In this document: piece by piece, positions 2 through 18,123 of the stretch | How the letters are laid out: each line of letters starts with the position of its first letter | Numbering within the stretch: position 1 is the first letter of the stretch | IMG/VR virus record: IMGVR_UViG_3300045988_130236 | Strand: one strand, 5' to 3' | Source: a virus | Lineage: Duplodnaviria > Heunggongvirae > Uroviricota > Caudoviricetes | DNA length: 18,664 nucleotides | Made by a program: the position numbers and the translations under genes | Notes under the pieces: model-generated | Seen by the model: only the letters and a program-made list of their open reading frames with translations | The model's database searches: none | What the model was told of the DNA's origin: nothing

Positions 2-1837
2 GCCTGGGTGGATGCGCATGGCGAGAAAGAATCGCTGTTTACGGATGAGGCGCAGGCTCACCTCTATGGTCATGTTGCTGGCGCTGCACGTGCTTTCAAT
101 ATTTCCCCTCTCTACTGGAAAAAATACCGTAAAGGACAGATGACCACGAGGCAGGCATATTCTGCCATTGCCCGTCTGTTTAACGATGAGTGGTGGACTC
201 ATCAGCTTAAAGGCCAGCGTATGCGCTGGCATGAGGCGTTACTGATAGCTGTCGGGGAGGTCAATAAAGACCGTTCTCCTTATGCCAGTAAACATGCCAT
301 TCGGGATGTGCGTGCACGCCGCCAGGCAAATCTGGAATTTCTTAAATCGTGTGACCTTGAAAACAGGGAAACCGGCGAGCGCATCGACCTTATCAGTAAG
401 GTGATGGGCAGTATTTCTAATCCTGAAATTCGCCGGATGGAGCTGATGAACACCATTGCCGGTATTGAGCGTTACGCCGCCTCAGAGGGTGATGTGGGGA
501 TGTTTATCACGCTTACCGCGCCGTCAAAGTATCACCCGACACGTCAGGTCGGAAAAGGCGAAAGTAAAACCGTCCAGCTAAATCACGGCTGGAATGATGA
601 GGCATTTAATCCAAAGGATGCGCAGCGTTATCTCTGCCGTATCTGGAGCCTGATGCGCACGGCATTCAAGGATAATGATTTACAGGCTTATGGTTTGCGT
701 GTTGTTGAGCCACACCACGACGGAACGCCGCACTGGCATATGATGCTTTTTTGTAATCCACGCCAGCGTAACCAGATTATCGAAATCATGCGTCGCTATG
801 CGCTCAAAGAGGATGGCGACGAAAGAGGAGCCGCGCGAAACCGTTTTCAGGCAAAACACCTTAACCGGGGCGGTGCTGCGGGATATATCGCGAAATACAT
901 CTCAAAAAACATCGACGGCTATGCGCTGGATGGTCAGCTCGATAACGATACCGGCAGGCCGCTGAAAGACACAGCGGCGGCTGTTACCGCATGGGCGTCA
1001 ACGTGGCGCATCCCGCAATTTAAAACGGTTGGCCTGCCGACAATGGGGGCTTACCGTGAACTACGCAAATTGCCTCGCGGCGTCAGCATTGCTGATGAGT
1101 TTGACGAGCGCGTCGAGGCTGCACGCGCCGCCGCAGACAGTGGTGATTTTGCGTTGTATATCAGCGCGCAGGGTGGGGCAAATGTTCCGCGCGATTGTCA
1201 GACTGTCAGAGTCGCCCGTAGCCCGTCGGATGACGTTAACGAGTACGAGGAAGAAGTCGAGAGAGTGGTCGGCATTTACGCGCCGCATCTCGGCGCGCGT
1301 CATATTCATATCACCAGAACCACGGACTGGCGCATTGTGCCGAAAGTGCCGGTCGTTGAGCCTTTGACTTTAAAAAGCGGCATCGCCGCGCCTCGGAGTC
1401 CTGTCAATAACTGTGGAAAGCTCACCGGTGGTGATACTTCGTTACCGGCTCCCACACCTTCTGAACACGCCGCAGCAGTGCTTAATCTGGTTGATGACGG
1501 TGTTATCGAATGGAGTGACCCGGAGGTTGTGAGGGCGCTCAGAGGTGCATTAAAATGCGGACTGAGAACACCAAATCGTCAGCAAAGAAACGGAAGTCCG
1601 TTAAAACCGCATGAAATAGCGCCATCAGCCAGGCTGACCAGGTCGGAACGATTGCAAATTACCCGTATTCGCGTTGATCTTGCTCAGAACGGTATCAGAC
1701 CTCAGCGATGGGAGCTTGAGTCGCTGGCGCGTGGGGCAACCGTAAATTATGACGGGAAAAAATTCACGTATCCGGTCGCTGATGAGTGGCCGGGATATTC
1801 AACTATAACAGAGTGGAATCAATTTGATGACGGGTAA
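2..1837 (+). CDS. A: Rolling-circle replication initiator endonuclease (P2 gpA-like), 5'-truncated by the window edge
   Basis: Frame is open to the window start (codons at 2-4, 5-7), so the gene continues upstream; the ORF track begins at a GTG at 8. Contains an HUH-type motif (TPHWHMM) and the paired catalytic tyrosines GYIAKYISKN (Tyr codons at 884-886 and 896-898), typical of P2 A-type RCR initiators. The ~609 aa seen here fits the C-terminal part of a ~760 aa A protein. Confidence 0.9.
   Translation, partial: AWVDAHGEKESLFTDEAQAHLYGHVAGAARAFNISPLYWKKYRKGQMTTRQAYSAIARLFNDEWWTHQLKGQRMRWHEALLIAVGEVNKDRSPYASKHAIRDVRARRQANLEFLKSCDLENRETGERIDLISKVMGSISNPEIRRMELMNTIAGIERYAASEGDVGMFITLTAPSKYHPTRQVGKGESKTVQLNHGWNDEAFNPKDAQRYLCRIWSLMRTAFKDNDLQAYGLRVVEPHHDGTPHWHMMLFCNPRQRNQIIEIMRRYALKEDGDERGAARNRFQAKHLNRGGAAGYIAKYISKNIDGYALDGQLDNDTGRPLKDTAAAVTAWASTWRIPQFKTVGLPTMGAYRELRKLPRGVSIADEFDERVEAARAAADSGDFALYISAQGGANVPRDCQTVRVARSPSDDVNEYEEEVERVVGIYAPHLGARHIHITRTTDWRIVPKVPVVEPLTLKSGIAAPRSPVNNCGKLTGGDTSLPAPTPSEHAAAVLNLVDDGVIEWSDPEVVRALRGALKCGLRTPNRQQRNGSPLKPHEIAPSARLTRSERLQITRIRVDLAQNGIRPQRWELESLARGATVNYDGKKFTYPVADEWPGYSTITEWNQFDDG
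1388..1407 (+). other. Putative origin of replication nick region inside gene A
   Basis: Sequence gcgcctcggagtcctgtcaa lies inside the A coding region downstream of the catalytic tyrosines. From memory, the P2 ori nick site is in A and has this or a very similar sequence. Recalled, not computed. Confidence 0.4.
1505..1695 (+). repeat. Direct repeat copy 1 (functional 3' end of gene A)
   Basis: atcgaatggagtgacccggaggttgtgagggcgctcagaggtgcattaaaatgcggactgagaacaccaaatcgtcagcaaagaaacggaagtccgttaaaaccgc... recurs with ~90% identity starting at 1837; similarity decays over roughly 190 bp. Confidence 0.85.
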
Positions 1838-2025
1838 TCGAATGGAATGATCCGGCGGTCGTGAGGGCGCTCAGAGGTGCATTAAAACACGGTCTGAGAA
1901 TACCAAATCGTCAGCAAAGAAACGGAAGTCCGTTAAAACCGCTTGCATTTGTGCCATCGCGAGGCTGATCAAATCAGGTTTGTGATAAATTACTAGTATT
2001 TATATAGACCTCGCTCAGTATGGCA
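1837..2025 (+). repeat. Direct repeat copy 2: out-of-frame remnant of an alternative gene A 3' end (pseudo-fragment)
   Basis: atcgaatggaatgatccggcggtcgtgagggcgctcagaggtgcattaaaacacggtctgagaataccaaatcgtcagcaaagaaacggaagtccgttaaaaccgc... starts on the last base of the A stop codon (TAA 1835-1837). It is shifted out of the A frame and hits a stop after 8 codons. Confidence 0.8.
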
Positions 2026-2254
2026 TCACACAGAAGTAATGTAAGCGTGGGGGGCGTGGTGTACCATTGATATACGACGGTCGAAAATTTACATAGCCGA
2101 TTTCCTGTGATTGGTTTTCGTTATGCACTCTTTTCTGAAGAGATTAACTACTGATAGACTCAGGTTGGATGTCAGAATCGCTATAGATTTCTTGCTATAT
2201 ATGTATTTTTCAATGAAAATGATCTCTGATTTAAACTGTAGTAAGGTGATTGGT

Positions 2255-2743
2255 ATGGATGGTTTATGGGAAAAAATATCGTCATATAATATATTTAATA
2301 ATCTTTTTCCAGGTGCTCTTTTTATTTATCTTCTTGAGAGAATGACGAAGATCGTTTTATCTGGCGATGATTTAATAAAAAATGTTGTCCTCTATTATTT
2401 TGTTGGCTTAGTCATTGGCCGGATTGGTTCTATCGTATTGGAACCTTTTTTAAAACTATCGCGTTTGATTAAGTTTGCTCCTTATAAAGATTATGTGTCA
2501 GCATGTGGTGTGGATGGAAAAATTGAAACTTTGCAAGAGATTGCGAATATGTATAGGACGATATTTTCAATGTCAATTATTCTTTTGGCGACATTGTGCG
2601 TTGTAGGACGGTTTACTGGCGAGACATATGGCTTATCTAAAATAACGTTGGCGGTTTTTGCTATTTTGTTTGTTGTCTCATATATTAAACAAATAAGATA
2701 CATAATATATAGAGTAAATGCTGTTAATAATAAGCTGCCGTAA
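2255..2743 (+). CDS. Small multi-pass inner-membrane protein, unknown function (cargo gene)
   Basis: The ORF track starts at 2111, but the ATG at 2255 has the only good SD (aaggtg, 6 nt upstream). About 162 aa with 3-4 hydrophobic helices (LFPGALFIYLL, VVLYYFVGLVIGRIGSIVL, IFSMSIILLATLCVVGRF, ITLAVFAILFVVSYI). Very AT-rich: 14 G+C in 60 nt at 2281-2340. Confidence 0.6.
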   Translation: MDGLWEKISSYNIFNNLFPGALFIYLLERMTKIVLSGDDLIKNVVLYYFVGLVIGRIGSIVLEPFLKLSRLIKFAPYKDYVSACGVDGKIETLQEIANMYRTIFSMSIILLATLCVVGRFTGETYGLSKITLAVFAILFVVSYIKQIRYIIYRVNAVNNKLP

Positions 2744-2751
2744 GGCAGCTT
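2732..2751. terminator. Hairpin between convergent genes (likely bidirectional intrinsic terminator)
   Basis: aagctgcc gtaa ggcagctt followed by ttt; an 8-bp perfect stem with 4-nt loop between the stop of the + membrane gene (2741-2743) and the stop of the - MBL gene (2757-2759). Confidence 0.55.
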
Positions 2752-2756
2752 TTGAA

Positions 2757-3848
2757 TTATTCTTCGGTTCTATAGTTACTAATGTATGATCGTGGAGTGG
2801 CTGTTTTCCATCCTGCCCTTTCAGGAGCATTATAAAAATGGTACTTACCAAGCCCCTCGGTGGCGATAACTTTCGCTCCTCGTCGAGTAAAGGCATTAAT
2901 TACAGCTTGATGGGGATGTTTATCTGAACCTGGGGCACATGATACAAATGCGGTTATCTCCCTTTTTTCGCCTTCATTTACAATGTTACCAACAAGTTTA
3001 TCGAGAACATCAGGGCCTACATTTCTCCGGCTACCATGATGAGGTACTTGAATGAATCTTAATGATTCTTTATTAATGTATTGGGAGGCTTGATCTAAGG
3101 CTGTTATACCAGCATCGCCAGTGAACACTAACGTTCTTCCATCAATCTCAAGTTTCAAAATGACACTTGAGTTATTTTGTGCCGAGGTGGTATCGTCATT
3201 ATCAATACCTTCATCAGTAAACCATTCAGCAACGTAATCAATAAATTTCTTCGTTTTTTCAACTACAGACTCAAAGACTGCTTTTAGTACTTCAAATCCA
3301 GCTGTATCCTCAGCTTTTTTGGGCATTCTTGCGAAATCAGGTATTAGAGTCTCATAGTAAGATTGGGTTGGCCCGATAACAACCAGAGTAGCATTATCCC
3401 AGGTCATTCCTTGAAAAGGCTCTTTTATTTCAATTCCTTTTTTTTCCGCTAATTTGACAGCGTCATAAGCTTTTTGTAAGTTTTCTTTCATTCGATTTGC
3501 AATACTGGCATCAGTTATCCTGCCATCTGCAAACTCACTTGCGAGACCTTGATTATGTTCCCAAGGCTTATGAATCCAAAACTCTTTTACTTCTGCATTT
3601 TCTAGAACAGATGTAAGTCCACCGACGTGGTCACCATCGGGGTGTGTGGAGATAAGCAAGTCAATAGTTTTTGTGCGGTAGTATTTTTCAATATGCTCAA
3701 TGACTTGTTCTCCGGTGCTGGCATATCCTGCATCAATAACGACAACTTTTTGTTCATCTCTTGAACCATGTAGGTTTCCCCATCTGATGCAGATCGCATC
3801 GCCGCTTTTTTTTTCGCCAACAGCTAGAAAATCAATTTCGTAACCCAT
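2757..3848 (-). CDS. Metallo-beta-lactamase-fold hydrolase, ComEC/Rec2-like, predicted nuclease (cargo gene)
   Basis: 363 aa. MBL signature motifs: VVVIDAG, then LLISTHPDGDHVGG (codons at 3627-3644), then FTGDAG and VPHHGS (His-His codons at 3036-3041). SD aagga sits 8 nt upstream of the ATG at 3848. Lower GC than the phage backbone. Confidence 0.8.
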   Translation of the reverse strand: MGYEIDFLAVGEKKSGDAICIRWGNLHGSRDEQKVVVIDAGYASTGEQVIEHIEKYYRTKTIDLLISTHPDGDHVGGLTSVLENAEVKEFWIHKPWEHNQGLASEFADGRITDASIANRMKENLQKAYDAVKLAEKKGIEIKEPFQGMTWDNATLVVIGPTQSYYETLIPDFARMPKKAEDTAGFEVLKAVFESVVEKTKKFIDYVAEWFTDEGIDNDDTTSAQNNSSVILKLEIDGRTLVFTGDAGITALDQASQYINKESLRFIQVPHHGSRRNVGPDVLDKLVGNIVNEGEKREITAFVSCAPGSDKHPHQAVINAFTRRGAKVIATEGLGKYHFYNAPERAGWKTATPRSYISNYRTEE

Positions 3849-4010
3849 TCCATATCCTTATTAAACTGTGAATTAACATGAATCCAAGATGTTAAATCAT
3901 ATGGATAATAACGCAACTTTTCCGCAGTAAACACTGTGAGCGGATTTAATCTCGTCAGAACTAAAAGCAAGTAGTGTGACGAGGGACAATGAGTCTCTTT
4001 GGGGCGTTGG

Positions 4011-4460
4011 CTATGACACTGACGCAACCAGATTAACGCCGTGAGTCAGCAGATTTGTAATCACACCGGCAATGACCCCAGGAGTCCCATCTTTCACCGC
4101 ACTGATCACTTTATCCCCCATCGTTTCATTTCCACCAAGCACCTCGGGTTTTTTGTTAAGAACTGTGAGCGCTTTTTCAGTAAGTCGAACATCGTAAAAA
4201 TACGACTGATGGTCTGTGTTGTACTGAATGTACCCGTTTTCACAGAGAAAATTGAATGTACCTTCAACCACACTACGCAACTGATTTAACGCTTTCATTT
4301 CTGGTGAGTTAAGTTGGTCAAAGTAGTCATCAGGTAGCGCGGCGTTAAATTTGTCGTAGTTAATCACCTGTGGTACGGGAAAATTTTCCCATAGTACTGC
4401 AAAGATTTCCGCCGTTTGTTGGTTAAATAAATCGAGATTTTTCGACATGCAAAATTCCAT
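4011..4460 (-). CDS. Hypothetical cytoplasmic protein, first gene of the cargo operon upstream of the MBL gene; start ambiguous
   Basis: Open frame 4011-4550 (179 aa) with in-frame ATGs at 4550, 4460 and 4448; none has a strong SD. No TM segments, no Walker or other motif I recognise. Same strand as the MBL gene, 162 bp upstream of it. Confidence 0.5.
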   Translation of the reverse strand: MEFCMSKNLDLFNQQTAEIFAVLWENFPVPQVINYDKFNAALPDDYFDQLNSPEMKALNQLRSVVEGTFNFLCENGYIQYNTDHQSYFYDVRLTEKALTVLNKKPEVLGGNETMGDKVISAVKDGTPGVIAGVITNLLTHGVNLVASVS

Positions 4461-4781
4461 TTCTTTTGATAATGAGTGGGTTAAACGCTGGACGAGGCAG
4501 ATTACCACTCTGGCACAAAACAATGATCTTAGTTCACGCGAAGTTGACATATATACCGATAAGCTGGTTGCGCAGGCAACTAGCGTAGAACTCGCTCAGG
4601 TCATCAAGATGCTATTGAATTATATTCGAATGCACAAATAAAATGATCTGTATCAATCTGTTAGGTGTCGTTTGTAAAAATGTGTGGACACGATTGTTCT
4701 GCTAATTGTTGTCAACATGTGCGTCAACAGTGAGATTGGTGCATTGCGCGGCCAGTGACAACTTTAAAAATTGGCCAAAAC

Positions 4782-4806
4782 CGGCACTATGAATGCCGTT
4801 TTTTTT
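4782..4806 (+). terminator. Intrinsic terminator-like hairpin plus T8 tract
   Basis: cggca ctatgaa tgccg followed by tttttttt (4799-4806) and preceded by aaaa; could also act on the minus strand. Sits between the cargo operon upstream region and cos. Confidence 0.4.
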
Positions 4807-4840
4807 GTGTTTTTTTCTGCGATACTCCTATTTTTAGCAG

Positions 4841-4886
4841 TGCATGCAATATGTGCGTGGTTTTGCATGTGCCTAAGTTGCATGTT
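4841..4886. repeat. Cluster of TGCATG(T/C) repeats adjacent to cos (possible terminase recognition elements)
   Basis: tgcatgc at 4841-4847, tgcatgt at 4865-4871 and 4880-4886, with a related gcacctgcat at 4931-4940, all within ~130 bp of cos. Confidence 0.3.
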
Positions 4887-4964
4887 CTGGCTGTGCACCG
4901 TCAGGACGGACGCCCCTCAAAAGTGGTAATGCACCTGCATTAAAACCGACCTATGAAGCGGGCG

Positions 4965-4983
4965 GGCGAGGCGGGGAAAGCAC
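4965..4983. other. cos: cos site (19-nt cohesive end sequence of P2-type phages)
   Basis: ggcgaggcggggaaagcac matches the P2 cohesive-end sequence as I recall it. Position is as expected: between the non-essential cargo region and the 3' end of portal gene Q. Confidence 0.6.
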
Positions 4984-5124
4984 TGCGCGCTGGCGGTGGT
5001 GCTGATTTTATTTTTTCAGCGTCTGAGCGCGTCGTGAAGGCGCTTAGTCTGCCCGTTGAGGCGTTGGTGTGTCTGCGGGGTGTTTTGTGCGGTGGTGAGC
5101 GTGTGAGCGCGTGATGACGGGGTG

Positions 5125-5148
5125 TAAAAAAGCCGCCCGCAGGCGGCG
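5125..5148 (-). terminator. Rho-independent terminator downstream of Q (end of the leftward P-Q late operon)
   Basis: On the minus strand: stem gccgcc/ggcggc with loop (plus 5132-5147) followed by a T6 run (plus-strand aaaaaa at 5126-5131), directly after the Q stop at 5153-5155. Confidence 0.6.
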
Positions 5149-5152
5149 ATGT

Positions 5153-6187
5153 TCAGCCGTTGTCAGTGTCCAGTGAGTAGTTTTTAAAGCGGATGACCTC
5201 CTGACCGAGCCAGCCGTTTATCTCGCGGATCCTGTCCTGTAGCGGGATAAGCTCATTGCGGACAAAGACCTTTGCCACTTTCTCAATATCACCCAGCGAC
5301 CCGACGTTCTCCGGCTTGCCGCCCATCAACTGAAAGGGGATGCGGTGCGCGTCCAGCAGGTCAGCGGCGCTGGCTTTTTTGATATTAAAAAAATCGTCCT
5401 TCGTTGCCACTTCACTGAGCGGGATAATTTTAATGCCGTCGGCTTTCCCCTGCGGGGCATAGAGAAACAGATTTTTAAAGTTGTTGCGGCCTTTCGACTT
5501 GACCATGTTTTCGCGAAGCATTTCGATATCGTTGCGATCCTGCACGGCATCGGTGACGTACATGATATATCCGGCATGAGCGCCGTTTTCGTAATACTTG
5601 CGGCGGAACAGCGTGGCCGACTCATTCAGCCAGGCAGAATTAAGGGCGCTGAGATATTCCGGCAGGCCGTACAGCTCCTGATTAATATCCGGCTCCAGCA
5701 GGTGAAACACGGAGCCGGGCGCGAAGGCTGTCGGCTCGTTGAAGGACGGCACCCACCAGTAAACATCCTCCTCCACGCCACGGCGGGTATATTTTGCCGG
5801 TGAGGTTTCCAGTCTGATGACCTTACCGGTGGTGCTGTAACGCTTTTCCAGAAACGCATTACCGAACACCAGAAAATCCAGCACAAAGCGGCTGAAATCC
5901 TGCTGGGAAAGCCACGGGTGCGGAATAAACGTTGAAGCCAGAATATTACGTTTGACGTAAATCGGTGAGCTGTGATGTACGGCAGCACGCAGGCTTTTTG
6001 CCAGACCGGTAAAGCTGACCGGTGGCTCATACCATCTGCCGTTACTGATGCACTCGACGTAATCCAGAATGTCACGGCGGTCGAGTACCGGCACCGGTTC
6101 ACCAAAGGTGAATGCCTCCATTTTCGGGGCGCTGGCGGTCATTTTTTTTGCCGCAGGTTGCGGTGTTTTCCCTTTTTTCTTGCTCAT
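5153..6187 (-). CDS. Q: Portal protein (P2 gpQ-like)
   Basis: 344 aa, starts MSKKKGKTPQPAAKK; length and sequence fit P2 Q. Its start overlaps the P stop (TGATG). Confidence 0.92.
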   Translation of the reverse strand: MSKKKGKTPQPAAKKMTASAPKMEAFTFGEPVPVLDRRDILDYVECISNGRWYEPPVSFTGLAKSLRAAVHHSSPIYVKRNILASTFIPHPWLSQQDFSRFVLDFLVFGNAFLEKRYSTTGKVIRLETSPAKYTRRGVEEDVYWWVPSFNEPTAFAPGSVFHLLEPDINQELYGLPEYLSALNSAWLNESATLFRRKYYENGAHAGYIMYVTDAVQDRNDIEMLRENMVKSKGRNNFKNLFLYAPQGKADGIKIIPLSEVATKDDFFNIKKASAADLLDAHRIPFQLMGGKPENVGSLGDIEKVAKVFVRNELIPLQDRIREINGWLGQEVIRFKNYSLDTDNG

Positions 6188-7959
6188 CAGTAAAACTCCA
6201 GAATGGTGGATGTCAGCGGGGTGCTGATACCGGCGGTGAGTGGCTCATTTAACAGGGCGTGCATGGTCGCCCAGGCGAGGTCGGCGTGGCTGGCTTCCTC
6301 GCTGCGGCTGGCCTCATAGGTGGCGCTGCGTCCGCTGCTGGTCATGGTCTTGCGGATAGCCATAAACGAGCTGGTGATGTCGGTGGCGCTGACGTCATAT
6401 TCCAGACAGCCACGGCGGATAACGTCTTTTGCCTTGAGCACCATTGCGGTTTTCATTTCCGGCGTGTAGCGGATATCGCGCGCGGCGGGATAGAACGAGC
6501 GAACGAGCTGGAACACGCCGACACCGAGGCCGGTGGCATCAATTCCGATGTATTCGACGTTGTATTTTTCGGTGAGTTTGCGGATGGATTCAGCCTGGGT
6601 GGCAAAGTCCATGCCTTTCCACTGGTGACGCTCAAGTATTCTGAATTTGCCACCGGCCACCACCGGCGGTGCCAGCACCACGCATCCGGCACTGTCGCCA
6701 CGGTGTGACGGGTCGTAACCAATCCATACCGGACGTGAGCCGAACGGATTGGCGGCAAACGGCGCATAGTCTTCCCATTCTTCCAGCGTGTCGACCATGC
6801 AGCGTTGCAGCTCCTCGAACGGGAACACCGACGCCTTGTCGTCAACAAATTCACACATGAACAGGTTTTTAAAATCGTCGGCGCTGTTTTCACGTTTGAG
6901 CTGCTCAATGTCGAACAGTGTGCAGCCACCTTTCAGGGCATCCTCAATGGTGACAATCTGCCGCCACTGGCCGTCCGCACAGAGAAGACCACCGGCAAGG
7001 GCGTTATGACTGACGTCGATTTCCACGCGTTCGGCGGCGCTGGCGCGTCCCCGGTTGAACAGTTCACCTGACCAGAACGGGTAGGCGTCGTGCGCCAGCG
7101 TGGACGGGGTGGAGAAATAGGTCGAGCGCAGGTGACTCTGTGAGGCCATACCTGATGCTACCTTACGCAGTACCTGAAAATTCGGGATCCAGAAAATCTC
7201 GTCGACGTACAGGTCGCCGTTATGGCTCTGTGCGGTGTTGGAGTTGGTGCCGAGAAAAATCAGTTTTGCACCGTTATTGCCCAGGACAATCGGGTCACCG
7301 GTCAGGTCAACGTCAACCAGCCGGGCAAAGGCAATGATGTATTCGCGGAACACATACGCCTGCGTTTTACTGGCCGACAGAAAAATCTGGTTATGGCCGG
7401 TTTTCAGGGCGCGCAGCAGCGCCTCGCGGGAAAAATAAAACGTCGCGCCAATCTGGCGGGATTTCAGGATATCGCGGATGCGGTGCTCAAGCCCGGCGCG
7501 ATACCAGTGCAACTGATATTCGAAAGACTGCTCAAAGAAAATCTGCTCCAGCTTTTCGATGGCCTCGTCGCTGAAAAAATTCTTTTTCGGTTTGCGACGC
7601 CCGCCTTTGTTGCGGTTAGCGACGTTCGGATTAAGGTCTGCCTCGTTGCCGGTCTGACTGTAGCGGTTTACCCGTGCCAGTCGTTCAATCTGGCGTCCGA
7701 GCAGGTCAATTTCCTTGAAGTCACCGCCGGTTTTCTGCGGTTTTATGATGAGCTGGGTCAGCCGCGCTTCCAGACTCATTTCGACACGGCTGATGGGAGC
7801 AACGCTGTCCCAGCCGTCGCGCTGTTTCCAGCTCTGCACCGTCGGGCGTTTCATCTGCAACATGGCGGCAATCTGCGGCACGGAAAACCCCTGCCAGTAC
7901 AGCAGCGCCGCCTGACGACGCGGGTCGTGTAAAAGAGTGGTGTCTGTGGTGATGGTCAT
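6187..7959 (-). CDS. P: Terminase large (ATPase) subunit (P2 gpP-like)
   Basis: 590 aa from the ATG at 7959 (MTITTDTTLL); the ORF track extends 10 codons further to 7989. Length matches P2 P; divergent from O across a shared control region. Confidence 0.92.
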   Translation of the reverse strand: MTITTDTTLLHDPRRQAALLYWQGFSVPQIAAMLQMKRPTVQSWKQRDGWDSVAPISRVEMSLEARLTQLIIKPQKTGGDFKEIDLLGRQIERLARVNRYSQTGNEADLNPNVANRNKGGRRKPKKNFFSDEAIEKLEQIFFEQSFEYQLHWYRAGLEHRIRDILKSRQIGATFYFSREALLRALKTGHNQIFLSASKTQAYVFREYIIAFARLVDVDLTGDPIVLGNNGAKLIFLGTNSNTAQSHNGDLYVDEIFWIPNFQVLRKVASGMASQSHLRSTYFSTPSTLAHDAYPFWSGELFNRGRASAAERVEIDVSHNALAGGLLCADGQWRQIVTIEDALKGGCTLFDIEQLKRENSADDFKNLFMCEFVDDKASVFPFEELQRCMVDTLEEWEDYAPFAANPFGSRPVWIGYDPSHRGDSAGCVVLAPPVVAGGKFRILERHQWKGMDFATQAESIRKLTEKYNVEYIGIDATGLGVGVFQLVRSFYPAARDIRYTPEMKTAMVLKAKDVIRRGCLEYDVSATDITSSFMAIRKTMTSSGRSATYEASRSEEASHADLAWATMHALLNEPLTAGISTPLTSTILEFY

Positions 7960-8132
7960 GAATACCTCGCCGTGATGAATACACGGCAAGGCTACTGAGT
8001 CGCGCCCCGCGATTCGCTAAGGTGCTGTTGTGTCAGTGATAAGCCATCCGGGACTGATGGCGGAGGATGCGCATCGTCGGGAAACTGATGCCGACATGTG
8101 ACTCCTCTAATCACTATTCAGGACTCCTGACA
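7960..8132. promoter_or_regulatory. Divergent late promoter region (expected Ogr-dependent P_P and P_O)
   Basis: Intergenic region between divergent P and O, where P2 places its late promoters. I found no exact TGT-N12-ACA activator dyad by eye, so this rests on gene organisation only. Confidence 0.35.
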
Positions 8133-8987
8133 ATGGCAAAAAAAGTCTCAAAATTCTTTCGTATCGGCGTTGAGGGTGACACCTGTGACGGGCGTGTCAT
8201 CAGTGCGCAGGATATTCAGGAAATGGCCGAAACCTTTGACCCGCGTGTCTATGGTTGCCGCATTAACCTGGAACATCTGCGCGGCATCCTGCCTGACGGT
8301 ATTTTTAAGCGTTATGGCGATGTGGCCGAACTGAAGGCCGAAAAGATTGACGATGATTCGGCGCTGAAAGGCAAATGGGCGCTGTTTGCGAAAATCACCC
8401 CGACCGATGACCTTATCGCGATGAACAAGGCCGCGCAGAAGGTCTACACCTCAATGGAAATTCAGCCGAACTTTGCCAACACCGGCAAATGTTATCTGGT
8501 GGGTCTGGCCGTCACCGATGACCCGGCAAGCCTCGGCACGGAATACCTGGAATTCTGCCGCACGGCAAAACACAACCCCCTGAACCGCTTCAAATTAAGC
8601 CCTGAAAACCTGATTTCAGTGGCAACGCCTGTTGAGCTGGAATTTGAAGACCTGCCTGAAACCGTGTTCACCGCCCTGACCGAAAAGGTGAAATCCATTT
8701 TTGGCCGCAAACAGGCCAGCGATGACGCCCGTCTGAATGACGTGCATGAAGCGGTGACCGCTGTCGCTGAGCATGTGCAGGAAAAACTGAGCGCCACTGA
8801 GCAGCGCCTCGCTGAGATGGAAACCGCCTTTTCCGCACTTAAGCAGGAGGTGACTGACAGGGCGGATGAAACCAGCCAGGCATTCACCCGCCTGAAAAAC
8901 AGTCTCGACCACACCGAAAGTCTGACCCAGCAGCGCCGCAGCAAGGCCACCGGTGGTGGCGGTGACGCCCTGATGACGAACTGCTGA
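8133..8987 (+). CDS. O: Capsid scaffolding protein (P2 gpO-like)
   Basis: 284 aa from the ATG at 8133 (MAKKVSKFFRIGVEGDT); length matches P2 O. The ORF-track start at 8067 is an upstream in-frame extension. Confidence 0.9.
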   Translation: MAKKVSKFFRIGVEGDTCDGRVISAQDIQEMAETFDPRVYGCRINLEHLRGILPDGIFKRYGDVAELKAEKIDDDSALKGKWALFAKITPTDDLIAMNKAAQKVYTSMEIQPNFANTGKCYLVGLAVTDDPASLGTEYLEFCRTAKHNPLNRFKLSPENLISVATPVELEFEDLPETVFTALTEKVKSIFGRKQASDDARLNDVHEAVTAVAEHVQEKLSATEQRLAEMETAFSALKQEVTDRADETSQAFTRLKNSLDHTESLTQQRRSKATGGGGDALMTNC

Positions 8988-9045
8988 CCGGCGTCAGTCA
9001 GTCCGGGAAAACCTTCACGATTAACCCTTAATTTCAGGAAAAACT

Positions 9046-10119
9046 ATGCGCCAGGAAACCCGCTTTAAATTTAATGCCTACCTGTCCCGTGTTGCCGAAC
9101 TGAACGGCATCGACGCCGGTGATGTGTCGAAAAAATTCACCGTTGAACCGTCGGTCACCCAGACCCTGATGAACACCATGCAGGAGTCCTCTGACTTTCT
9201 GACCCGCATCAACATTGTGCCGGTCAGCGAAATGAAAGGGGAAAAAATTGGCATCGGTGTCACCGGCTCCATCGCCAGCACCACCGACACCGCCGGTGGC
9301 ACCGAGCGTCAGCCGAAGGACTTCTCGAAGCTGGCGTCAAACAAGTACGAATGCGACCAGATTAACTTCGATTTTTATATCCGCTACAAAACGCTGGACC
9401 TGTGGGCGCGTTATCAGGATTTCCAGCTCCGTGTCCGTAACGCCATTATCAAACGCCAGTCCCTTGATTTCATCATGGCCGGTTTTAACGGCGTGAAGCG
9501 TGCAGAAACCTCTGACCGCAGCAGCAATCCGATGCTGCAGGATGTGGCGGTCGGCTGGCTGCAGAAATACCGCAATGAAGCACCGGCGCGCGTGATGAGC
9601 AAGGTCACTGACGAGGAAGGTCACACGACCTCTGAGGTCATCCGCGTGGGTAAGGGCGGTGATTATGCCAGCCTTGACGCACTGGTGATGGATGCGACCA
9701 ACAACCTGATTGAACCGTGGTATCAGGAAGACCCTGACCTTGTGGTAATTGTGGGTCGTCAGCTACTGGCGGACAAGTATTTCCCCATCGTCAACAAAGA
9801 GCAGGACAACAGCGAAATGCTGGCCGCTGACGTCATCATCAGCCAGAAACGCATCGGTAACCTGCCGGCGGTACGCGTCCCGTACTTCCCGGCGGATGCG
9901 ATGCTCATCACGAAGCTGGAAAACCTGTCCATCTACTACATGGATGACAGCCATCGCCGCGTGATTGAGGAAAACCCGAAACTCGACCGCGTGGAGAACT
10001 ACGAGTCAATGAACATTGATTACGTGGTGGAAGACTACGCCGCCGGTTGCCTGGTGGAAAAAATTAAGGTCGGTGATTTCTCCACACCGGCTAAAGCGAC
10101 CGCAGAGCCGGGAGCGTAA
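9046..10119 (+). CDS. N: Major capsid protein (P2 gpN-like)
   Basis: 357 aa, SD agga upstream, MRQETRFKFNAYLSRVAELNGIDAGD; size and position fit P2 N. Confidence 0.92.
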   Translation: MRQETRFKFNAYLSRVAELNGIDAGDVSKKFTVEPSVTQTLMNTMQESSDFLTRINIVPVSEMKGEKIGIGVTGSIASTTDTAGGTERQPKDFSKLASNKYECDQINFDFYIRYKTLDLWARYQDFQLRVRNAIIKRQSLDFIMAGFNGVKRAETSDRSSNPMLQDVAVGWLQKYRNEAPARVMSKVTDEEGHTTSEVIRVGKGGDYASLDALVMDATNNLIEPWYQEDPDLVVIVGRQLLADKYFPIVNKEQDNSEMLAADVIISQKRIGNLPAVRVPYFPADAMLITKLENLSIYYMDDSHRRVIEENPKLDRVENYESMNIDYVVEDYAAGCLVEKIKVGDFSTPAKATAEPGA

Positions 10120-10122
10120 CCG

Positions 10123-10866
10123 ATGACGAGTCCCGCACAGCGCCACATGATGCGGGTCTCGGCAGCGATGACCGCGCAGCGGGAAGCCGCCCCGCTGCGA
10201 CATGCAACTGTCTATGAGCAGATGCTGGTCAAGCTGGCCGCAGACCAGCGCACACTGAAAGCGATTTATTCAAAAGAGCTTAAGGCCGCGAAAAAACGCG
10301 AACTGCTGCCGTTCTGGTTGCCGTGGGTGAACGGCGTGCTGGAGCAGGGCAAAGGTGCACAGGATGACATTCTGATGACGGTCATGCTGTGGCGTCTGGA
10401 TACCGGCGATATTGCCGGTGCGCTGGAGATTGCCCGTTATGCCCTGAAGTACGGTCTGACCATGCCGGGTAAACACCGCCGCACCCCGCCGTACATGTTC
10501 ACCGAGGAGGTGGCGCTCGCGGCCATGCGCGCCCACGCTGCCGGTGAGTCTGTGGATACCCGCCTGCTGACGGAGACCCTTGCACTGACCGCCACGGCAG
10601 ACATGCCTGATGAAGTGCGCGCAAAGCTGCACAAAATCACCGGTCTGTTTCTGCGTGACGCTGGTGATGCCGCCGGTGCGCTGGCTCACCTGCAACGTGC
10701 GACACAGCTCGACTGTCAGGCAGGCGTCAAAAAAGAGATTGAACGACTGGAGCGGGAGCTGAAACCGAAGCCGGAGCCGCAGCCCAAAGCGGCCACCCGC
10801 GCCCCGCGTAAGACCCGGAGCGTGACACCGGCAAAACGTGGACGCCCGAAAAAGAAAGCCAGTTAA
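10123..10866 (+). CDS. M: Terminase small (endonuclease) subunit (P2 gpM-like)
   Basis: 247 aa, directly after N, with a basic C-terminal tail (RKTRSVTPAKRGRPKKKAS); matches P2 M in length and order. Confidence 0.9.
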   Translation: MTSPAQRHMMRVSAAMTAQREAAPLRHATVYEQMLVKLAADQRTLKAIYSKELKAAKKRELLPFWLPWVNGVLEQGKGAQDDILMTVMLWRLDTGDIAGALEIARYALKYGLTMPGKHRRTPPYMFTEEVALAAMRAHAAGESVDTRLLTETLALTATADMPDEVRAKLHKITGLFLRDAGDAAGALAHLQRATQLDCQAGVKKEIERLERELKPKPEPQPKAATRAPRKTRSVTPAKRGRPKKKAS

Positions 10867-10965
10867 CAACCGAATGCGCCCCGCGCCAGGGCGGCACGCC
10901 GGTCAGTGAGGGTGAATCACCTGACACTGCACCGGCGTCCACCGCCCGACTTTTCAGAGGTAGTC

Positions 10966-11475
10966 ATGATGACGCTGATTATTCCGCGAAAGGAGGCTCC
11001 AGTGTCCGGTGAGGGTACGGTGGTCATCCCGCAACCGGCAGGCGACGAGCCGGTGATTAAAAACACGTTCTTTTTTCCCGATATCGACCCGAAGCGCGTC
11101 CGGGAACGTATGCGCCTTGAGCAGACCGTCGCCCCCGCCCGTCTGCGTGAGGCCATCAAGTCAGGCATGGCTGAAACAAATGCGGAGCTGTACGAGTACC
11201 GCGAACAGAAAATTGCCGCCGGTTTTACGCGTCTGGCGGACGTTCCGGCGGACGACATCGACGGTGAAAGTATCAAAGTTTTTTACTACGAGCGCGCCGT
11301 GTGTGCGATGGCGACCGCGTCGCTTTATGAGCGTTACCGCGGCGTGGATGCCAGTGCGAAAGGCGACAAGAAGGCCGACAGCATTGACAGCACCATTGAT
11401 GAGCTGTGGCGGGATATGCGCTGGGCAGTGGCGCGCATCCAGGACAAGCCGCGCTGCATCGTGAGTCAAATCTGA
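10966..11475 (+). CDS. L: Head completion/stabilisation protein (P2 gpL-like)
   Basis: 169 aa from the ATG at 10966 (MMTLIIPRKEAP) with SD gagg 6 nt upstream; the ORF-track start at 10906 is an extension. Confidence 0.88.
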   Translation: MMTLIIPRKEAPVSGEGTVVIPQPAGDEPVIKNTFFFPDIDPKRVRERMRLEQTVAPARLREAIKSGMAETNAELYEYREQKIAAGFTRLADVPADDIDGESIKVFYYERAVCAMATASLYERYRGVDASAKGDKKADSIDSTIDELWRDMRWAVARIQDKPRCIVSQI

Positions 11476-11678
11476 TGAAGACCTTTGCGCTACAGGGCGA
11501 CACGCTCGACGCCATTTGTGTCCGGTATTACGGGCGCACTGAGGGCGTGGTTGAGGCCGTGCTCGCCGCAAATCCGGGACTGGCTGAACTGGGTGCGGTG
11601 CTGCCGCACGGCACCGCCGTCGAACTGCCCGACGTTCAGACCGCGCCCGTGGCTGAAACTGTCAATCTGTGGGAGTAA
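11475..11678 (+). CDS. X: Small tail-associated protein (P2 gpX-like)
   Basis: 67 aa (MKTFALQGDTLDAICVRYYG); start overlaps the L stop (tgATGa). Size fits P2 X. Confidence 0.85.
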   Translation: MKTFALQGDTLDAICVRYYGRTEGVVEAVLAANPGLAELGAVLPHGTAVELPDVQTAPVAETVNLWE

Positions 11679-11681
11679 CGC

Positions 11682-11963
11682 ATGACAGCAGAAGAAAAAA
11701 GCGTCCTGTCGCTTTTCATGATTGGGGTGCTGATTGTTGTCGGCAAGGTGCTTGCCGGTGGTGAACCCATCACCCCGCGTCTGTTTATCGGGCGCATGTT
11801 GCTCGGTGGTTTTGTCTCGATGGTTGCCGGTGTTGTTCTGGTGCAGTTTCCTGACCTGTCACTGCCTGCGGTGTGCGGCATCGGCTCCATGCTGGGTATC
11901 GCCGGTTATCAGGTGATTGAGATTGCCATTCAGCGCCGCTTTAAGGGCAGGGGGAAACAGTAA
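11682..11963 (+). CDS. Y: Holin (P2 gpY-like)
   Basis: 93 aa with two or three TM segments and a charged C-terminus (QRRFKGRGKQ); sits immediately before the endolysin. Confidence 0.88.
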   Translation: MTAEEKSVLSLFMIGVLIVVGKVLAGGEPITPRLFIGRMLLGGFVSMVAGVVLVQFPDLSLPAVCGIGSMLGIAGYQVIEIAIQRRFKGRGKQ

Positions 11964-12460
11964 TGCCGGTAATTAACACGCATCAGAATATCGCTGCCTT
12001 TCTCGACATGCTGGCCGTGTCCGAAGGGACGGCGAATCACCCGCTGACGAAAAACCGGGGCTATGACGTGATAGTCACCGGACTGGACGGGAAGCCGGAA
12101 ATCTTCACCGACTACAGTGACCACCCGTTCGCACATGGCCGACCGGCGAAGGTGTTTAACCGTCGCGGTGAAAAATCCACGGCCTCCGGTCGCTATCAGC
12201 AGCTTTACCTGTTCTGGCCGCACTACCGCAAACAGCTTGCCCTGCCGGATTTCAGTCCGTTGTCGCAGGACAGACTCGCCATTCAGTTGATCCGCGAACG
12301 CGGTGCACTGGATGACATCCGGGCGGGACGCATTGAGCGCGCCATTTCACGCTGTCGCAATATCTGGGCGTCCCTGCCGGGTGCCGGTTACGGTCAGCGT
12401 GAGCATTCACTGGAAAAACTGGTCACCGTCTGGCGTACCGCTGGCGGCGTACCGGCTTAA
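11963..12460 (+). CDS. K: Endolysin, lysozyme-like (P2 gpK-like)
   Basis: 165 aa, start overlaps the Y stop (taATG); size and order match P2 K. Confidence 0.9.
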   Translation: MPVINTHQNIAAFLDMLAVSEGTANHPLTKNRGYDVIVTGLDGKPEIFTDYSDHPFAHGRPAKVFNRRGEKSTASGRYQQLYLFWPHYRKQLALPDFSPLSQDRLAIQLIRERGALDDIRAGRIERAISRCRNIWASLPGAGYGQREHSLEKLVTVWRTAGGVPA

Positions 12461-12474
12461 ACGGAGTAAACACC

Positions 12475-12900
12475 ATGAAGAAATTATCCCTTTCACTGAT
12501 GCTGAATGTGTCGCTGGCGCTGATGCTTGCACTGTCCCTGATTTACCCGCAGAGCGTGGCCGTCAATTTTGTCGCCACCTGGGCGATTCTGGCGACGGTT
12601 ATCTGTGTGGTTGCCGGTGGTGTCGGCGTGTATGCCACTGAGTATGTGCTGGAACGCTACGGGTGGGAGCTGCCACCGGAGTCGCTGGCCGTGAAGATTG
12701 TCATGTCGCTGTTTTTGCAGCCGGTGCCGTGGTGCAGACGGGCGGCGGCTCTGGTGGTGATGGTGGCGACATTTATCTCGCTGGTCGCTGCCGGGTGGAT
12801 TTTTACCGCGCTGATTTATCTCGTGGCGTCGGTGTTCTTCCGGCTGATACGTACGGCCTGCCGTCAACGTCTTGAGGGGCGGGAACCATGTCAAAGCTGA
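12475..12900 (+). CDS. lysA: Lysis-timing membrane protein (P2 LysA-like)
   Basis: 141 aa, four hydrophobic segments; position after K as in P2. Confidence 0.85.
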   Translation: MKKLSLSLMLNVSLALMLALSLIYPQSVAVNFVATWAILATVICVVAGGVGVYATEYVLERYGWELPPESLAVKIVMSLFLQPVPWCRRAAALVVMVATFISLVAAGWIFTALIYLVASVFFRLIRTACRQRLEGREPCQS

Positions 12901-13313
12901 TGATTGTGCTGGTTGTGTTGTTATCGCTGGCGGTGGCGGGGCTGTTTCTGGCGAAGCATGAAAACGCCAGCCTGCGCGCCTCGCTGGACAGGGTGAACAA
13001 CGTCGCCAGTGAACAGCAGACGACCATCACCATGCTGAAAAACCAGCTTCATGTTGCACTCACCAGGGCAGACAAAAACGAGCTGGCGCAGGTGGCACTG
13101 CGTCAGGAACTGGAGAACGCCGCGAAACGTGAAGCACAGCGCGAGAAAACCATCACGAGGTTACTGAATGAAAACGAGGATTTTCGCCGCTGGTATGGCG
13201 CTGACCTGCCTGATGCTGTGCGCCGGTTGCACCAGCGTCCGGCCTGCACTGACGCCAGTGATTGTCGCCAACGCCTGCCCGAAAGTGAGCCTTTGCCCGA
13301 TGCCGGGCAGTGA
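12888..13313 (+). CDS. lysB: Rz-like inner-membrane spanin (P2 LysB-like)
   Basis: 141 aa with an N-terminal TM anchor (MSKLMIVLVVLLSLAVAGLF) followed by a coiled-coil-like region. Confidence 0.85.
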   Translation: MSKLMIVLVVLLSLAVAGLFLAKHENASLRASLDRVNNVASEQQTTITMLKNQLHVALTRADKNELAQVALRQELENAAKREAQREKTITRLLNENEDFRRWYGADLPDAVRRLHQRPACTDASDCRQRLPESEPLPDAGQ

Positions 13314-13458
13314 CCCGCAGACGAACGGCGATTTAAGTGCCGATATCCGGCAGCTTGAGAACGCGCTGGCACGCTGTGCCAGCCAGGTAAAAATGATTAA
13401 ACACTGTCAGGACGAAAACGATGCTCAAACCCGACAGCCTGCGCAGGGCGCTGACTGA
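13168..13458 (+). CDS. lysC: Rz1-like outer-membrane lipoprotein spanin (P2 LysC-like), embedded in a different frame of lysB
   Basis: 96 aa with a lipoprotein signal and lipobox (MLCAGC) and a proline-rich region; overlaps the lysB 3' half out of frame. Confidence 0.82.
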   Translation: MKTRIFAAGMALTCLMLCAGCTSVRPALTPVIVANACPKVSLCPMPGSDPQTNGDLSADIRQLENALARCASQVKMIKHCQDENDAQTRQPAQGAD

Positions 13459-13888
13459 TGCCGTCACGGTGCTGAAAACTAACCCCGATATGCTGCGGAT
13501 ATTCGTGGATAACGGGAGTATTGCCTCCACACTGGCGGCGTCGTTGTCATTCGAAAAGCGTTACACGCTCAATGTCATTGTGACCGACTTTACCGGTGAT
13601 TTTGACCTGCTCATCGTGCCGGTGCTGGCGTGGCTGCGGGAAAATCAGCCCGACATCATGACCACCGACGCAGGCCAGAAAAAGGGCTTCACGTTTTATG
13701 CAGACATCAACAATGACAGCAGCTTTGATATCAGCATCAGCCTGATGCTGACCGAGCGCACGCTGGTCAGTGAGGTGGACGGCGCACTGCATGTGAAGAA
13801 TATCCCGGAACCCCAGCCGCCGGAGCCGGTCACCCGCCCGATGGAGCTGTATATCAATGGCGAACTGGTGAGCAAGTGGGATGAATGA
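13421..13888 (+). CDS. R: Tail completion protein (P2 gpR-like)
   Basis: 155 aa; size and order match P2 R. Confidence 0.88.
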   Translation: MLKPDSLRRALTDAVTVLKTNPDMLRIFVDNGSIASTLAASLSFEKRYTLNVIVTDFTGDFDLLIVPVLAWLRENQPDIMTTDAGQKKGFTFYADINNDSSFDISISLMLTERTLVSEVDGALHVKNIPEPQPPEPVTRPMELYINGELVSKWDE

Positions 13889-14333
13889 GTTTAAGCGTTT
13901 TGAAGACCGGCTGACCGGACTGATTGAATCGCTGTCACCGTCAGGGCGTCGACGACTGAGCGCCGAACTGGCGAAACGTCTGCGTCAGAGTCAGCAGCGT
14001 CGGGTGATGGCACAGAAAGCCCCTGACGGCACACCCTACGCGCCACGCCAGCAGCAGAGCGCCAGAAAAAAGACCGGTCGCGTTAAGCGAAAAATGTTTG
14101 CGAAACTTATCACCAGTCGTTTTTTGCATATCCGCGCCAGCCCGGAGCAGGCATCAATGGAATTTTACGGCGGAAAGTCACCGAAAATCGCCAGTGTGCA
14201 TCAGTTTGGTCTGTCGGAAGAAAACCGGAAAGACGGTAAGAAAATTGATTATCCGGCGCGCCCTCTGCTCGGCTTCACCGGTGAGGATGTGCAGATGATT
14301 GAAGAGATTATTCTGGCTCACCTCGACCGTTAG
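13881..14333 (+). CDS. S: Tail completion protein (P2 gpS-like)
   Basis: 150 aa; start overlaps the R stop; size and order match P2 S. Confidence 0.88.
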   Translation: MNEFKRFEDRLTGLIESLSPSGRRRLSAELAKRLRQSQQRRVMAQKAPDGTPYAPRQQQSARKKTGRVKRKMFAKLITSRFLHIRASPEQASMEFYGGKSPKIASVHQFGLSEENRKDGKKIDYPARPLLGFTGEDVQMIEEIILAHLDR

Positions 14334-14364
14334 TTGTGCCATTCCCGACACCTCATCGTCACAT

Positions 14365-14387
14365 TGCCGCCGGTATGACCCGGCGGC
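14365..14387 (+). terminator. GC-rich hairpin between S and V (possible operon boundary terminator or attenuator)
   Basis: tgccgccgg tatga ccggcggca, a 9-bp stem. There is no U-tract after it, so function is uncertain. It sits where P2 separates the O..S and V..G late operons. Confidence 0.3.
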
Positions 14388-14399
14388 ATCCTTCCCGTT

Positions 14400-15035
14400 A
14401 TGAACACTCTCGCAAATATTCAGGAACTCGCGCGCGCACTGCGCAACATGATCCGCACCGGCATTATCGTCGAAACCGACCTTAACGCCGGTCGCTGCCG
14501 TGTGCAGACCGGCGGCATGTGCACCGACTGGCTTCAGTGGCTGACCCATCGTGCCGGACGTTCGCGTACATGGTGGGCACCTTCCGTGGGGGAACAGGTG
14601 CTGATTCTGGCCGTGGGCGGTGAACTCGACACGGCGTTCGTTCTGCCGGGGATTTATTCCGGCGATAACCCCGCGCCGTCTGCGTCGGCGGATGCCCTGC
14701 ATATCCGTTTCCCTGACGGGGCGGTGATTGAGTATGAACCCGAAACCAGTGCACTCACGGTAAGCGGAATTAAAACGGCCAGCGTGACGGCTTCTGATTC
14801 TGTTACTGCCACGGTGCCGGTGGTCACGGTGAAAGCATCAACCCGCGTCACCCTGGACACACCGGAGGTGGTCTGCACCAACAGGCTGATTACCGGCACG
14901 CTGGAAGTGCAGAAGGGCGGGACGATGCGCGGCAACATTGAACACACCGGCGGTGAACTCTCATCAAACGGTAAGGTACTGCATACCCATAAACACCCCG
15001 GCGACAGCGGCGGCACAACCGGGAGTCCTCTATGA
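14400..15035 (+). CDS. V: Baseplate central spike/hub protein (P2 gpV-like)
   Basis: 211 aa (MNTLANIQELARALRNMIRTGII); matches P2 V in size and position. Confidence 0.9.
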   Translation: MNTLANIQELARALRNMIRTGIIVETDLNAGRCRVQTGGMCTDWLQWLTHRAGRSRTWWAPSVGEQVLILAVGGELDTAFVLPGIYSGDNPAPSASADALHIRFPDGAVIEYEPETSALTVSGIKTASVTASDSVTATVPVVTVKASTRVTLDTPEVVCTNRLITGTLEVQKGGTMRGNIEHTGGELSSNGKVLHTHKHPGDSGGTTGSPL

Positions 15036-15379: not shown

Positions 15380-15383
15380 AACC

Positions 15384-18035: not shown

Positions 18036-18123
18036 ACTGGCCCCCTGAATCTCCAGACAACCAGTATCACTTAAATAAGTGATAGTCTTAATACTAGTTT
18101 TTAGACTAGTCATTGGAGAACAG

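Follow-up and report, generated by a model that had tools for sequence, protein, structure and literature searches.

A ComEC-type metallo-β-lactamase gene and its membrane-protein partner as a candidate defence cassette in the A-to-cos hotspot of a P2-like prophage

The virus record IMGVR_UViG_3300045988_130236, a stretch of 18,664 nucleotides that is referred to here as the window, is a P2-like prophage in which the interval between replication gene A and cos (positions 1838-4964) carries two adjacent, convergent genes, orf1 and orf2, followed on the cos side by two further genes, orf3 and orf4. The product of orf1 is a small membrane protein, and that of orf2 is a predicted nuclease with the metallo-β-lactamase (MBL) fold of the competence protein ComEC. 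We tentatively read orf1 and orf2 as a horizontally mobile two-gene defence cassette in which a membrane-partnered DNase would be controlled by orf1, and would place this reading at slightly short of an even chance. By analogy the cassette most likely, if unproven, belongs functionally with Zorya, Kiwa and SNIPE as a membrane-coupled DNase defence, and among the defence MBL nucleases it is best seen as a variant that has a membrane partner and no protease.

The gene pair and its catalogue status

2255..2743, plus strand: orf1, a 162-amino-acid membrane protein with about four transmembrane (TM) helices (PDC-M48A, phrog_11864; from PADLOC and the PGAP coding sequence WP_001752365)
2734..2753, no strand assigned: hairpin GCTGCC-GTAA-GGCAGC followed by TTTT, over the convergent stops of orf1 and orf2 (read from the sequence)
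2757..3848, minus strand: orf2, a 363-amino-acid cytoplasmic predicted nuclease of the ComEC-type MBL fold (PDC-M48B; from PADLOC, Pfam and an AF2/fold match)

Both proteins match components of the PADLOC candidate PDC-M48 (PADLOC-DB v2.0.0), orf1 as PDC-M48A (PDLC04670, 1.7e-50, profile positions 1-162 of 164) and orf2 as PDC-M48B (PDLC04676, 7.4e-101, profile positions 5-353 of 357), and no named and characterised system is matched by either. The stop codons are 13 bp apart, and the hairpin that lies over them is a possible bidirectional terminator; its T run is under the terminator scanner's minimum of 5 T, hence it was not reported by the scan. The start of orf1 is at 2255, giving 162 residues rather than the 210-residue open reading frame (ORF) with a TTG start that an earlier, sequence-only reading of the interval had adopted.

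That reading had proposed an uncharacterised defence or exclusion module. Defence is still the best reading, but the pair had been listed already, as PDC-M48A/B in PADLOC and in Table S5A of Rousset 2022, where the window's own protein trio, WP_001752367, WP_001752365 and WP_001752366, stands as 'hypothetical + hypothetical + Lactamase_B' beside two-gene variants (PMC9122126). The MBL and TM pair is absent from the DefensePredictor, domain-centric and modularity-network discovery screens. The cassette is therefore not new as a locus, being a catalogued candidate without published characterisation.

The predicted nuclease

From its sequence and its structural model, orf2 is judged to be a cytoplasmic, metal-dependent phosphodiesterase with the ComEC-type MBL nuclease fold and a complete active site. 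The motif H69-P-D71-G-D73-H74 is completed by D245 and H270-H271, and 67 homologues show no variation in the catalytic residues H69, D71, D73, H74, D245, H270 and H271. Lactamase_B is the only Pfam match (6.8e-12). The AF2 model has a pLDDT of 90.5, with residues 185-197 as the sole predicted disordered loop, and its best fold match in the PDB is the MBL domain of ComEC (9ic4; Foldseek E 2e-14, TM-score 0.75 on the target), while the best PDB matches by sequence are likewise to the C-terminal nuclease domain of ComEC (9ic4, 30bt). No signal peptide is read from the sequence. ComEC/Rec2 is a nuclease at a membrane DNA-entry channel and has H-x-D-x-D-H in common with orf2, but it is composed of an OB fold, the Competence TM domain and an MBL domain, whereas orf2 is an MBL domain alone, which from position 86 to position 219 is longer than that of ComEC by approximately 74 residues. 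The public name of orf2, 'ComEC/Rec2 family competence protein', is misleading, as its score on the ComEC/Rec2 model TIGR00361 is 49.2 bits against a cut-off of 190.05 and covers model positions 558-660 only. The label 'tail protein' is attached to phrog_7043, which also covers orf2.

Work from 2025 identified MBL nucleases as common executioners of immunity that are unlocked by a partner protease in each case studied (PMC12799240; PMC12642450). The MBLs of the HamM, Avs1a, LmuA-H and CanC types are, as three studies of that year show, zymogens in which the partner protease cuts two gating loops, after which DNA is degraded, and defence is abolished by HamM H289A and CanC H271A, both within the shared HH motif, and by mutations of D276 in VcMBL (PMC12799240; PMC12642450). 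These protease-gated enzymes, which comprise HamM of Hachiman HamMAB, Avs1a and other Avs-linked proteins, LmuA-H, the DRT-associated MBLs and CanC, have the same ComEC-like fold and catalytic residues as orf2 and are, like the cassette, cargo of defence islands or mobile elements; they differ in having a partner protease where orf2 has a four-TM protein. The other PADLOC matches of orf2 are to LmuA-MBL (2e-29), the DRT-associated RTasMBL (3e-20) and Avs1a (2.5e-14). The family cut-offs are not reached, either for Avs1a (NF041809, 62.1 bits against 420) or for the 6A-MBL anti-phage system (NF058524, 33.9 bits against 220).

These matches raise the question of whether orf2 might itself be a zymogen like HamM, Avs1a and CanC, with a protease of the host or of a phage cutting it in trans and orf1 as an accessory. 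Aligned with HamM, LmuA-H and CanC (sequences from the Tuck 2025 supplement, PMC12799240), orf2 is 20-24% identical, has H-x-D-x-D-H, D and HH in common with them, and has additional segments where their two gating insertions lie, and its loop at 185-197 is predicted to be disordered. The extra segments are shorter, however, and the first of them (residues 100-137) is predicted to form ordered helices (pLDDT >90) with a conserved motif of its own (F106, D108, G109, R110, D113 and S115), while the loop at 185-197 is variable in sequence, with no invariant Ile or Gly cut site seen. PDC-M48B proteins of 297-320 amino acids, from Faecalibacillus and others, are without the insertions and still keep the partner. 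A protease gene is neither a recurrent neighbour nor present in the island, where orf1 and orf3 have no protease domain and orf4 matches only phrog_2454. In view of the ordered insertion, the unconserved loop, the lack of a visible conserved cut site, the family members without insertions and the lack of a protease gene, orf2 is not classed here as a protease-gated member, and cleavage in trans is regarded as highly improbable. orf2 also has a conserved C-terminal tail (P342, R344, W347 and Y355) that is absent from the gated enzymes.

The membrane partner

The match of orf1 to phrog_11864 is at 1e-97. Hydrophobic segments lie near residues 44-62, 102-120 and 126-144, together with a weaker N-terminal one, and the residues that are invariant across the family are K7, Y11, P19, G20, Y48, G51, R56, S59, Y77, R101, F139, K145 and Q146. 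Conserved motifs are found at the N-terminus (EKISSYNIFNNLFPG), in TM2 (YYFVGLxISRIGS), before TM3 (NNMYRT) and after TM4 (SYxKQ). The positive charges suggest that the N-terminus, the loop at 63-100 and the C-terminus are cytoplasmic, where they would be within reach of orf2.

This is a large family, numbering 1226 clusters at 50% identity (E<=1e-3), and it extends to Firmicutes and Bacteroidetes. An MBL gene adjoins the orf1-family gene in all seven of the loci inspected, in convergent, A-then-B or B-then-A order, and the same PDC-M48 pair occurs in loci from Yersinia, Faecalibacillus, Porphyromonas and metagenome-assembled genomes (MAGs). No known pore-forming or holin family was matched by orf1 in PADLOC, Pfam and further profile searches. 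An intramembrane protease was considered and rejected, as the family is without conserved His, HExxH, GxGD or rhomboid-type motifs, and a relationship to Csx27, an accessory protein of type VI-B CRISPR, was likewise rejected, the match of orf1 reaching E 0.25 only. The public name of the orf1 family is 'phosphohistidine phosphatase', although the protein has four TM segments and no such domain.

A wider family of MBL and membrane-protein pairs

An MBL-alignment scan of one genome per species confirmed 268 relatives, and the loci of the best 80 of these (39-73% identical) were analysed. Their hosts are Proteobacteria, Bacteroidota, Acidobacteria, Planctomycetes, Streptomyces, bacteria of the candidate phyla radiation (CPR) and one archaeal MAG. 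An adjacent ORF with at least two TM segments is present in 71 of the 80 loci, and in 66 of these 71 it lies directly downstream on the same strand. Only three of the 71 partners are of the PDC-M48A type, whereas 67 form one 'long' family of 200-280 amino acids with the same 2TM-loop-2TM layout (examples, from the locus set L020-L097, are L021:7092-7712, L002:7094-7735 and L004:7102-7725). This long family gives no consistent Pfam or PADLOC match, and the short family has no Pfam match either, so both lie outside the Competence domain. Since it is not matched by the PADLOC models for the A component, most MBL and TM pairs would escape PADLOC, whose models detect only the minority 'short-partner' form, while the names given in RefSeq hide these proteins. 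The long partners were also considered as relatives of Csx27, and rejected, with only one of 65 and one Vibrio protein matching, at 2e-5 to 6e-5.

MBLs that are approximately 53% identical to orf2 pair with either type of partner. Homology between short and long partners was sought and not shown (6-10 bits for profile hidden Markov model against sequence, hhalign probability 2%); all that they have in common is a Y-R motif ahead of TM3 and the 2TM-loop-2TM layout. Two unrelated partner families with one layout would fit generic membrane damage, which, together with the conserved charged residues at the helix ends of orf1, favours a different division of labour: abortive infection with orf1 as executioner. 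Here orf2 would detect or process a nucleotide signal or the DNA of the phage, whereupon the membrane would be depolarised or made permeable by orf1. Where known systems pair a TM protein with an enzyme, moreover, the TM protein is usually deemed to be a suicide effector (Rousset 2022, PMC9122126). We consider this unlikely, because the characterised relatives of orf2 are themselves killing effectors (DNases), because every catalytic residue of orf2 is kept across phyla, which would be needless in a pure sensor, and because orf1 has no match to a known family of pores or holins.

The surroundings of the MBL loci are a typical defence-island and mobile-element context. Type I HsdS accounts for 10 of 133 immediately neighbouring ORFs, including six divergent half-size hsdS genes, and further neighbours are HsdR, DNA methylases, integrases and resolvases; the pair is also carried by one Tn7-like element and one conjugative transposon. 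The long-type loci were also examined for a third conserved gene, an idea that was rejected, since the sole recurrent upstream ORF is the half-size HsdS. The commonest neighbour families include no trypsin-like, caspase or subtilisin proteases, and Peptidase_S24/LexA and M78/IrrE occur twice each.

Several individual loci may be mentioned. The divergent half-size hsdS lies directly upstream in L020, L031, L037, L061, L094 and L095 (about 5280-5950, minus strand), and other MBL and TM cassettes directly follow hsdR or hsdS (L056:2756-5632; L099:557-3949). Two loci from Vibrionaceae have a DEAD/Helicase_C/MZB protein of about 1,890 amino acids (1,895 in one case) directly upstream (L021:60-5744, L029:48-5714), which may be another defence gene or part of a larger composite system. 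In one short-partner locus (L100:4510-5469) a 319-amino-acid MBL-like neighbour has SWDMDH in place of HxDxDH and may be a catalytically altered variant.

The hotspot and its mosaic structure

8..1837, plus strand: P2-type replication gene A, 3' 609 codons (from the ORF list; the 5' end is outside the window)
1838..2099, plus strand: non-coding relic that duplicates, in degenerate form, the 3' end of gene A at 1506-1774 (from local alignment)
4011..4448, minus strand: orf3, a 145-amino-acid winged-helix-like protein with a C-terminal helical hairpin (phrog_2266)
4447..4641, plus strand: orf4, a 64-amino-acid gene product (phrog_2454, 3.1e-35, 64 of 64 positions)
4782..4806, plus strand: predicted terminator-like hairpin with a T8 run, downstream of orf4 (from a consensus scan)
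4965-4983, plus strand: 19-mer GGCGAGGCGGGGAAAGCAC, matched exactly, as the right-hand limit of the hotspot

The interval 1838-4964 is 100% identical to a prophage in the chromosome of E. coli strain 5444, where the gene order is integrase, cox, B, A, the interval, Q/P and capsid genes, and where the product of gene A is annotated as 'replication endonuclease' (WP_112860928). The 20-mer GCGCCTCGGAGTCCTGTCAA, which we take to be the P2 ori nick site, has an exact match inside gene A at 1388-1407, with 0 matches expected by chance. On the other side, the exact match at 4965-4983 is to the 19-mer GGCGAGGCGGGGAAAGCAC, the cohesive end of P2 cos, and the portal and terminase genes come after it. 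With the stop of gene A upstream and the cos 19-mer downstream, the interval therefore sits in the A-to-cos hotspot, where the sequence-only reading had placed it. The hotspot lies between gpA and cos/gpQ, and P2 itself carries tin and old there (Rousset 2022, PMC9122126).

The view that the interval is AT-rich foreign cargo is supported by its G+C content of 0.399, against 0.530 in gene A and 0.563 in 4965-18664, with the lowest value, 0.32, over orf1. Of the two spot counts that had been offered, that of 44 G+C at 10141-10200 is correct, while 2281-2340 holds 15 and not 14. It had also been said that nothing here looks like Old or Tin, with which we agree: P2 Old is an ATPase-TOPRIM nuclease, whereas no ORF of the interval has a Walker A motif, and PADLOC gives no match to an Old or Tin profile at E<=1.

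The interval is not, however, the single island of three ORFs that had been proposed. The segments that compose it are distributed independently of one another, as a mosaic in which only orf1 and orf2 travel together, and its three parts are the relic at 1838-2099, the two-gene cassette at 2186-3850 and a cos-proximal module at 4027-4964. Nor is all of it cargo, as the first 262 nucleotides (1838-2099) are a degenerate second copy of the 3' end of gene A. This relic starts directly after the gene A stop, has stop codons in all three frames and aligns to 1506-1774 across 258 columns at 79% identity, which rises to about 90% in the first 125 nucleotides. The gene A sequences of P2, pro147 and Yersinia phages give matches of 87-89% to 1838-1968. 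It is probably the scar of a recombination within gene A that exchanged the cargo of the hotspot. The 20-mer at 1388-1407 lies upstream of the duplicated segment, so that the relic has no second ori.

The cassette segment 2186-3850 is approximately 73% identical to Peduovirus P24E6b and phages D8, 11W and 12W, and in P24E6b the counterparts of orf1 and orf2 are the only annotated genes from A to the cos-proximal end. The segment 4027-4964 has its similarity elsewhere, being 77-84% identical to phage Midge, Klebsiella phages and Salmonella FSLSP004, all of which are without orf1 and orf2. DNA similarity to other phages thus ends between the modules, at 3850 and 4027. Among 5426 complete E. coli genomes the cassette is found in 45, 23 with the allele of the window and 22 with a 72%-identical allele, and orf1 and orf2 co-occur in every one of the 45, while the flanking modules match hundreds of genomes. 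At least some of the genomes with the 72%-identical allele match up to orf2 but not over the orf3 region. The pair alone is also present in Yersinia P2-like prophages and in elements of Firmicutes and Bacteroidetes. No meaningful repeats flank the cassette, and an Rfam search gave no match at E<=0.1.

The cos-proximal module

The start of orf3 is at 4448, so that the protein has 145 residues and not the 179 given in the sequence-only reading, which also overlooked orf4 (4447-4641, plus strand) and so counted three ORFs where there are four. The two genes diverge, with opposite-strand ATG codons that overlap by 2 nucleotides. Homologues of orf3 are restricted to Enterobacteriaceae and are under purifying selection. 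In Salmonella they adjoin cos beside quite different cargo, and in the hotspots of Klebsiella and phage Midge, too, orf3 is accompanied by other cargo. An orthologue of orf4, of 63 amino acids and 54-56% amino-acid identity, is intact in Salmonella prophages and phage Midge, although orf4 is left unannotated by PGAP in the identical E. coli record. Possibly with a regulatory role, orf3 and orf4 make up a separate cos-proximal phage module and are not part of the cassette.

The opposite view would be that of a three- or four-gene system, with orf3, and perhaps orf4, as a functional component such as a regulator or sensor of the nuclease pair. orf3 precedes orf2 on the same strand at a distance of 162 bp and has a winged-helix fold of DNA-binding type, 23 E. 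coli genomes hold the trio at >=99% identity, and WP_001752367 is likewise adjoined by another MBL allele. Yet the cassette is without orf3 in P24E6b, D8, 11W, 12W, Yersinia and every non-enterobacterial locus, as in at least some of the E. coli genomes with the 72%-identical allele. Conversely, orf3 is present and the cassette absent in Klebsiella phages, in Midge and in Salmonella, where 792 contigs carry the protein. With similarity to other phages also breaking between the modules, a larger system is very unlikely, and we prefer to think in terms of a two-gene cassette.

Some further features of this region were observed. The 162-bp spacer between orf3 and orf2 (3849-4010) contains an inverted repeat, CTCGTCA...TGACGAG, at about 3948-3980; DNA similarity to other phages ends on both sides of the spacer, which could contain the promoter of orf2 or an operator. 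In Salmonella P2-like prophages (L012-L016, 5494-6239, minus strand) orf3 and orf4 adjoin a conserved gene pair coding for 120 and 128 amino acids, phrog_32870 (with a weak holin-like match) and phrog_35122, which is another uncharacterised cargo of the hotspot.

A proposed mechanism and its difficulties

The analysis shows a complete ComEC-type MBL active site, a membrane partner, linkage of the two genes across phyla and surroundings of a mobile, defence-like kind. In the mechanism that we propose on top of this, the prophage would carry orf1 and orf2 for its host. orf1 would dock and restrain the predicted nuclease orf2 at the inner membrane, a role suggested because its conserved N-terminus, central loop and C-terminus appear to be cytoplasmic, and would license it upon entry of a phage genome or perturbation of the membrane. 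Once licensed, orf2 might cut DNA near the entry site, providing direct immunity, or, if released more widely, might cut DNA indiscriminately and so cause abortive infection. orf1 would thus hold the regulatory place that is taken by the fused protease in the related gated MBL pro-nucleases.

The precedent, by analogy, is provided by the membrane-localised nuclease defences Zorya (ZorAB with ZorC/D), Kiwa (KwaA with KwaB) and SNIPE, each of which, like the cassette, joins a membrane component to a cytoplasmic effector that acts on DNA. For these systems spatial coupling to genome entry has been proposed as the means of discriminating self from non-self, and their likeness to the cassette is a functional analogy only: none of their components is matched by PADLOC in the cassette, and the effector here has an MBL nuclease fold. 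The P4 system Rst_Hydrolase-3Tm is similarly analogous, as a hydrolase and TM protein from a cos-adjacent hotspot that blocks T7 (PMC9122126). The cassette was considered as an example of this system and rejected, because that hydrolase has a HAD fold and comes from P4, and because PADLOC gives no match.

A number of points weigh against a membrane-controlled DNase. That the substrate of orf2 would be DNA is suggested by its relatives, and the fold match that ranks second is to a phosphorylcholine esterase. Many known systems have a TM protein that kills and does not act as sensor (Rousset 2022, PMC9122126). A single mechanism for both types of partner is an assumption, as short and long partners are not detectably homologous, and the model leaves the sparing of self DNA unaccounted for. 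The sigma-70 scan gave 4 sites against 7.8 expected, with none upstream of orf1 or orf2. None of the cassette accessions searched is in the table of tested systems of Rousset 2022 (PMC9122126), and PDC-M48, a bioinformatic candidate only, is named in no paper found by our literature search.

The esterase match in particular leads to the alternative that the pair is not a defence system at all but cargo of another kind: a phosphodiesterase of lipid head groups or nucleotide messengers, an agent of DNA scavenging, or a silent passenger bound by H-NS. MBL folds hydrolyse many substrates, the hotspot also carries partition systems and a toxin (Rousset 2022, PMC9122126), the very low G+C may point to silencing, and no phenotype for PDC-M48 was found in the literature. 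Such cargo seems distinctly unlikely to us, given the strong conservation of the MBL across phyla, the recurrence of the pair on mobile elements and beside type I restriction-modification genes, and the position of the ComEC nuclease and of defence DNases as the closest characterised relatives.

Implications

Were the cassette not defensive, it would merely be one more catalogued, uncharacterised cargo of the P2 hotspot. If it does defend, it would reveal a second mode of control for the same nuclease, as the group to which it belongs is a large sister group to the gated MBLs in which there is no protease and a small multi-pass membrane protein is present instead. It would also be a compact, 1.6-kb addition to the small class of systems, with Zorya, Kiwa and SNIPE, that use the membrane to distinguish self from incoming DNA. 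A more general claim, which we regard as doubtful, is that the MBL and four-TM pair is a widespread, cross-phylum defence in which a membrane sensor, and not a protease, licenses a ComEC-like nuclease to destroy incoming phage or plasmid DNA where it enters the cell; if true, the logic of the ComEC DNA-uptake nuclease would have been converted to immunity.

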